Source: an uncultured Thermoleophilia bacterium (lineage in GTDB: Bacteria; Actinomycetota; Thermoleophilia; UBA2241). Taken from it: a stretch of 64,000 nt of DNA. Below, a report on this DNA, generated by a model with database tools, continues. The stretch is taken from contig CAVPXA010000025.1 of NCBI GenBank assembly GCA_963709635.1, positions 26,686 through 90,685 on the forward strand, written 5' to 3'. The stretch is not shown here.

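Follow-up and report, generated by a model that had tools for sequence, protein, structure and literature searches.

The selC locus and its empty site in relatives

Both ARAGORN and Rfam identified a complete tRNA-Sec gene (copy 1, Table) with a TCA anticodon (23968-23970), which scores 68.9 bits for an Rfam gathering score of 47 and folds as the bacterial 8/5 cloverleaf, with a D stem of 6 bp and a variable arm of 7 bp. A repeat search revealed a 73-nt direct repeat with 96% identity, 23959-24031 versus 26130-26202, with three mismatched bases: C23974/A26145, leading to the loss of an anticodon-stem pair in copy 2, and GA23987-8/AG26158-9, within the unpaired variable-arm loop. Copy 2 is devoid of the D arm and of most of the 5' acceptor strand, obtains 33.5 bits with Rfam and has no tRNA fold. 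The sequence agrees with the sequence-only reading, which described an intact tRNA-Sec and a D-stem-less copy. Because of these same defects, a second 'tRNA-SeC' reported by ARAGORN at 26101-26198 was rejected as a pseudo-call, the cloverleaf being forced onto the element arm and the displaced fragment; two selC genes would probably be listed if this genome were annotated automatically.

Downstream of copy 2, which runs on into the native flank, lies a serine-hydrolase (Beta-lactamase2) gene with many homologues in Thermoleophilia MAGs, and the contigs encoding its closest homologues were used as comparison loci. L001, an ENA contig with 95% nucleotide identity to the window, harbors, in this order, a gene for a GGDEF protein (diguanylate cyclase), only one tRNA-Sec, a 213-bp spacer and the hydrolase gene. 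Blastn yielded two collinear blocks, L001 7-9788 with window 14345-24032 and L001 9715-21233 with window 26130-37671, sharing 74 nt of L001 (9715-9788) that correspond to the tRNA 3' part; this overlap points to a 2,098-bp insertion in the window, together with a duplicated target segment. The island-insertion reading could be tested by an empty site in relatives: such a site is present in L001, and six more loci (L002, L003, L014, L017, L020 and L057) contain one tRNA-Sec each and no FG-GAP insert. Since the order GGDEF gene, selC, hydrolase gene is common to island-free relatives, the locus was not rearranged by the island, contrary to what had been proposed.

Features of the selC locus, with marker bases of the native, recombinant and inferred att sites
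Feature	Position	Strand	Anticodon-stem marker	Variable-loop marker	Description
Native tRNA-Sec in relatives (attB)			C	AG	
Copy 1, intact tRNA (attL)	23934-24031		C	GA	
Copy 2, fragment (attR)	26130-26202		A	AG	
Element attP, inferred			A	GA	
Insert	24032-26129				
Cargo gene	ATG start 25971	minus			signal peptide, ~7 FG-GAP_2 units, InlB B-repeat domain
FG-GAP_2-encoding array	24639-25802				170-nt tandem repeats
Family-5 ABC substrate-binding protein gene	19611-21568				
Conserved post-selC block	26262-26320				~60 nt

Reciprocal markers and the inferred crossover

A 38-mer from the tRNA-Sec 3' end was used to scan GTDB genomes (15 loci) and JGI metagenomes (50 loci), and ...caaaaCcgtctgcggggcAGtg... 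was found in every full-length native tRNA-Sec of the scanned loci and of L001-L003. The reciprocal distribution of markers in the two window copies (attL = BOP', attR = POB') is what would be expected from one crossover between a native attB and a foreign attP. The exchange point is expected between 23975 and 23986, or anywhere in 23959-23986 if the A of copy 2 is a later mutation. A 41-mer carrying GA had zero occurrences in JGI metagenomes, and GA is therefore not a common native allele. With Rfam, the chimeric window tRNA-Sec compares with the native L001 gene at 68.9 versus 69.4 bits; as SelB is encoded within the window, the cell presumably uses its Sec system.

Related elements at tRNA-Sec

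Four metagenome contigs (L038, L039, L048 and L055) contain tRNA-Sec 3' fragments starting at the anticodon loop and preceded by non-tRNA DNA, representing attR-type ends of other insertions. In L051, L065 and L019, tyrosine integrases (PF00589, with an additional SAM-like N-terminal domain in L051) are encoded 100-165 nt downstream of tRNA-Sec and transcribed towards it, and another tyrosine integrase adjoins the L039 fragment. The 50 nt before copy 2 align with the arm before the L055 fragment, at equal distance to the fragment, with a score of 35 versus 15.3 +/- 2.7 for shuffles (1/500 reached 35), and TTTGCAGG lies 62-63 nt before CTTCAAAA in both arms. This octamer, with two occurrences in the 64-kb window for 0.3 expected, is also located 5-15 nt past the tRNA end in L019, L039, L047, L051 and L065, precedes the L048 and L055 fragments, and may be an arm-type integrase-binding site of a tRNA-Sec-specific element family. 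The GGAGC before copy 2, previously read as an acceptor-stem leftover, more likely belongs to this conserved element arm.

On the left side of the insert, 'ctgttttggggg' alone faintly recalls 'ctgcattttgcaggg', and the 275 bp of this end (24032-24306) match nothing; at this position, intact relatives carry the P' arm plus the integrase gene end. No integrase or fragment thereof was detected in the insert or the whole window (best E = 0.18 in tblastn searches using the integrases of L051 and L039), nor any Pfam domain (E <= 1) on ORFs of the left end. Neither an attP form nor another copy of the element turned up, viral-contig scans yielded nothing or chance matches only, and the base composition of the insert displays no clear foreign signal.

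L018 3805-4017, from another Thermoleophilia MAG, retains ~170 nt downstream of tRNA-Sec only a 71-aa C-terminal tyrosine-integrase remnant, which shares 52% identity with the L051 integrase, and is an independent case of island decay. At L039 3775-4743, the tRNA-Sec fragment is flanked on both sides by island-type DNA, being preceded by a DDE-transposase-like ORF and followed by the TTTGCAGG motif and an integrase, and corresponds either to an attP-like configuration or to a junction inside a tandem array of islands. The displaced L055 fragment is followed by gcctatccttgcatgacggagaaagc..., as is the full tRNA-Sec in L068 and L028, where this sequence leads into a 397-aa ORF and a 404-aa ORF, the latter with a sequence suggestive of an ATPase; this common stretch identifies L055 as the attR of an insertion into an L068-like genome.

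The cargo gene

The secreted FG-GAP gene of the insert shows at least 15 reading-frame changes between 25830 and 24400 (~1 per 95 nt). For background, 17 flanking genes were compared with their L001 orthologues within window 14345-37671, giving 10 frame breaks in 15.9 kb (1 per 1.6 kb), a rate at which ~0.9 break would be expected in the cargo; the flanks agree with the separate claim of pervasive single-base frameshifts. From their names (contig_NNNN, MFD bins), the contigs seem to derive from metagenomes assembled with long reads. The cargo breaks possibly reflect a true pseudogene, or possibly a poorer consensus inside the insert, arising for instance from its presence in part of the population only or from the tandem repeats. 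Two adjacent FG-GAP units (25070-25085 and 24900-24915) share a one-base insertion, ttcggcAtgctc, absent from the other five, which suggests that at least some frameshifts are real DNA features or systematic context errors rather than random consensus noise. The repeat units share 55-75% identity with FG-GAP_2 proteins of several phyla; no orthologue covering the unique N- and C-terminal parts of the cargo was found.

Other variation near selC

Four relatives (L002, L003, L017 and L057) carry a different ~1.3-kb insertion (L002 8390-9646; L003 about 6266-7563; window equivalent 26361-26393), between the conserved post-selC block and the hydrolase start and devoid of tRNA fragment, consisting of a minus-strand gene for a secreted 332-345-aa protein with no Pfam match. 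The more distant L007, L014 and L015 also have varied secreted-protein genes between selC and the hydrolase gene, and this spacer is a general hot spot for such genes, independent of att recombination. The post-selC block, kept in L001, L002, L003, L017, L020 and L057, includes a 9-bp inverted repeat (cggctccgg ... ccggagccg), folds no better than shuffles (z = -1.06), has no Rfam match and could be a selC terminator or a hydrolase leader. About 2.4 kb upstream of selC, the substrate-binding protein gene is a presence/absence polymorphism, found in the window and L001 and absent from L002, L003 and L017, whose alignments skip from window 19610 to 21569.

Origin of the insert

The history that we consider most likely, with good confidence, has two steps: an element of the L019/L039/L051/L065 family would have integrated into selC via an anticodon-centred att site, regenerating a functional tRNA-Sec, and a later deletion would have removed its integrase end, leaving an immobile 2.1-kb remnant with a decaying surface-protein gene. 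The first reading of an old integrase-less island remnant at selC is supported. A mini-element mobilised in trans, never endowed with its own integrase, is an unlikely source. RecA-mediated recombination or a duplication-type event, without integrase, is a very improbable origin, against which speaks the element-type arm adjoining copy 2. Misassembly is more improbable still, as the empty-site sequence resumes base-exactly.

In the Islander collection, 3' tRNA-gene fragments accompany 3,760 of 3,919 islands and anticodon-centred attP sites 2,083 of them (PMC4383910); the one Islander criterion from which the window insert departs is an integrase gene inside the island. In enterobacteria, selC classically serves as a target for islands, and inserts there have been reported to span 3.4-57 kb (PMC6174562). 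The window insert would represent an island insertion of known type, with the same target, selC, in a phylum unrelated to enterobacteria.
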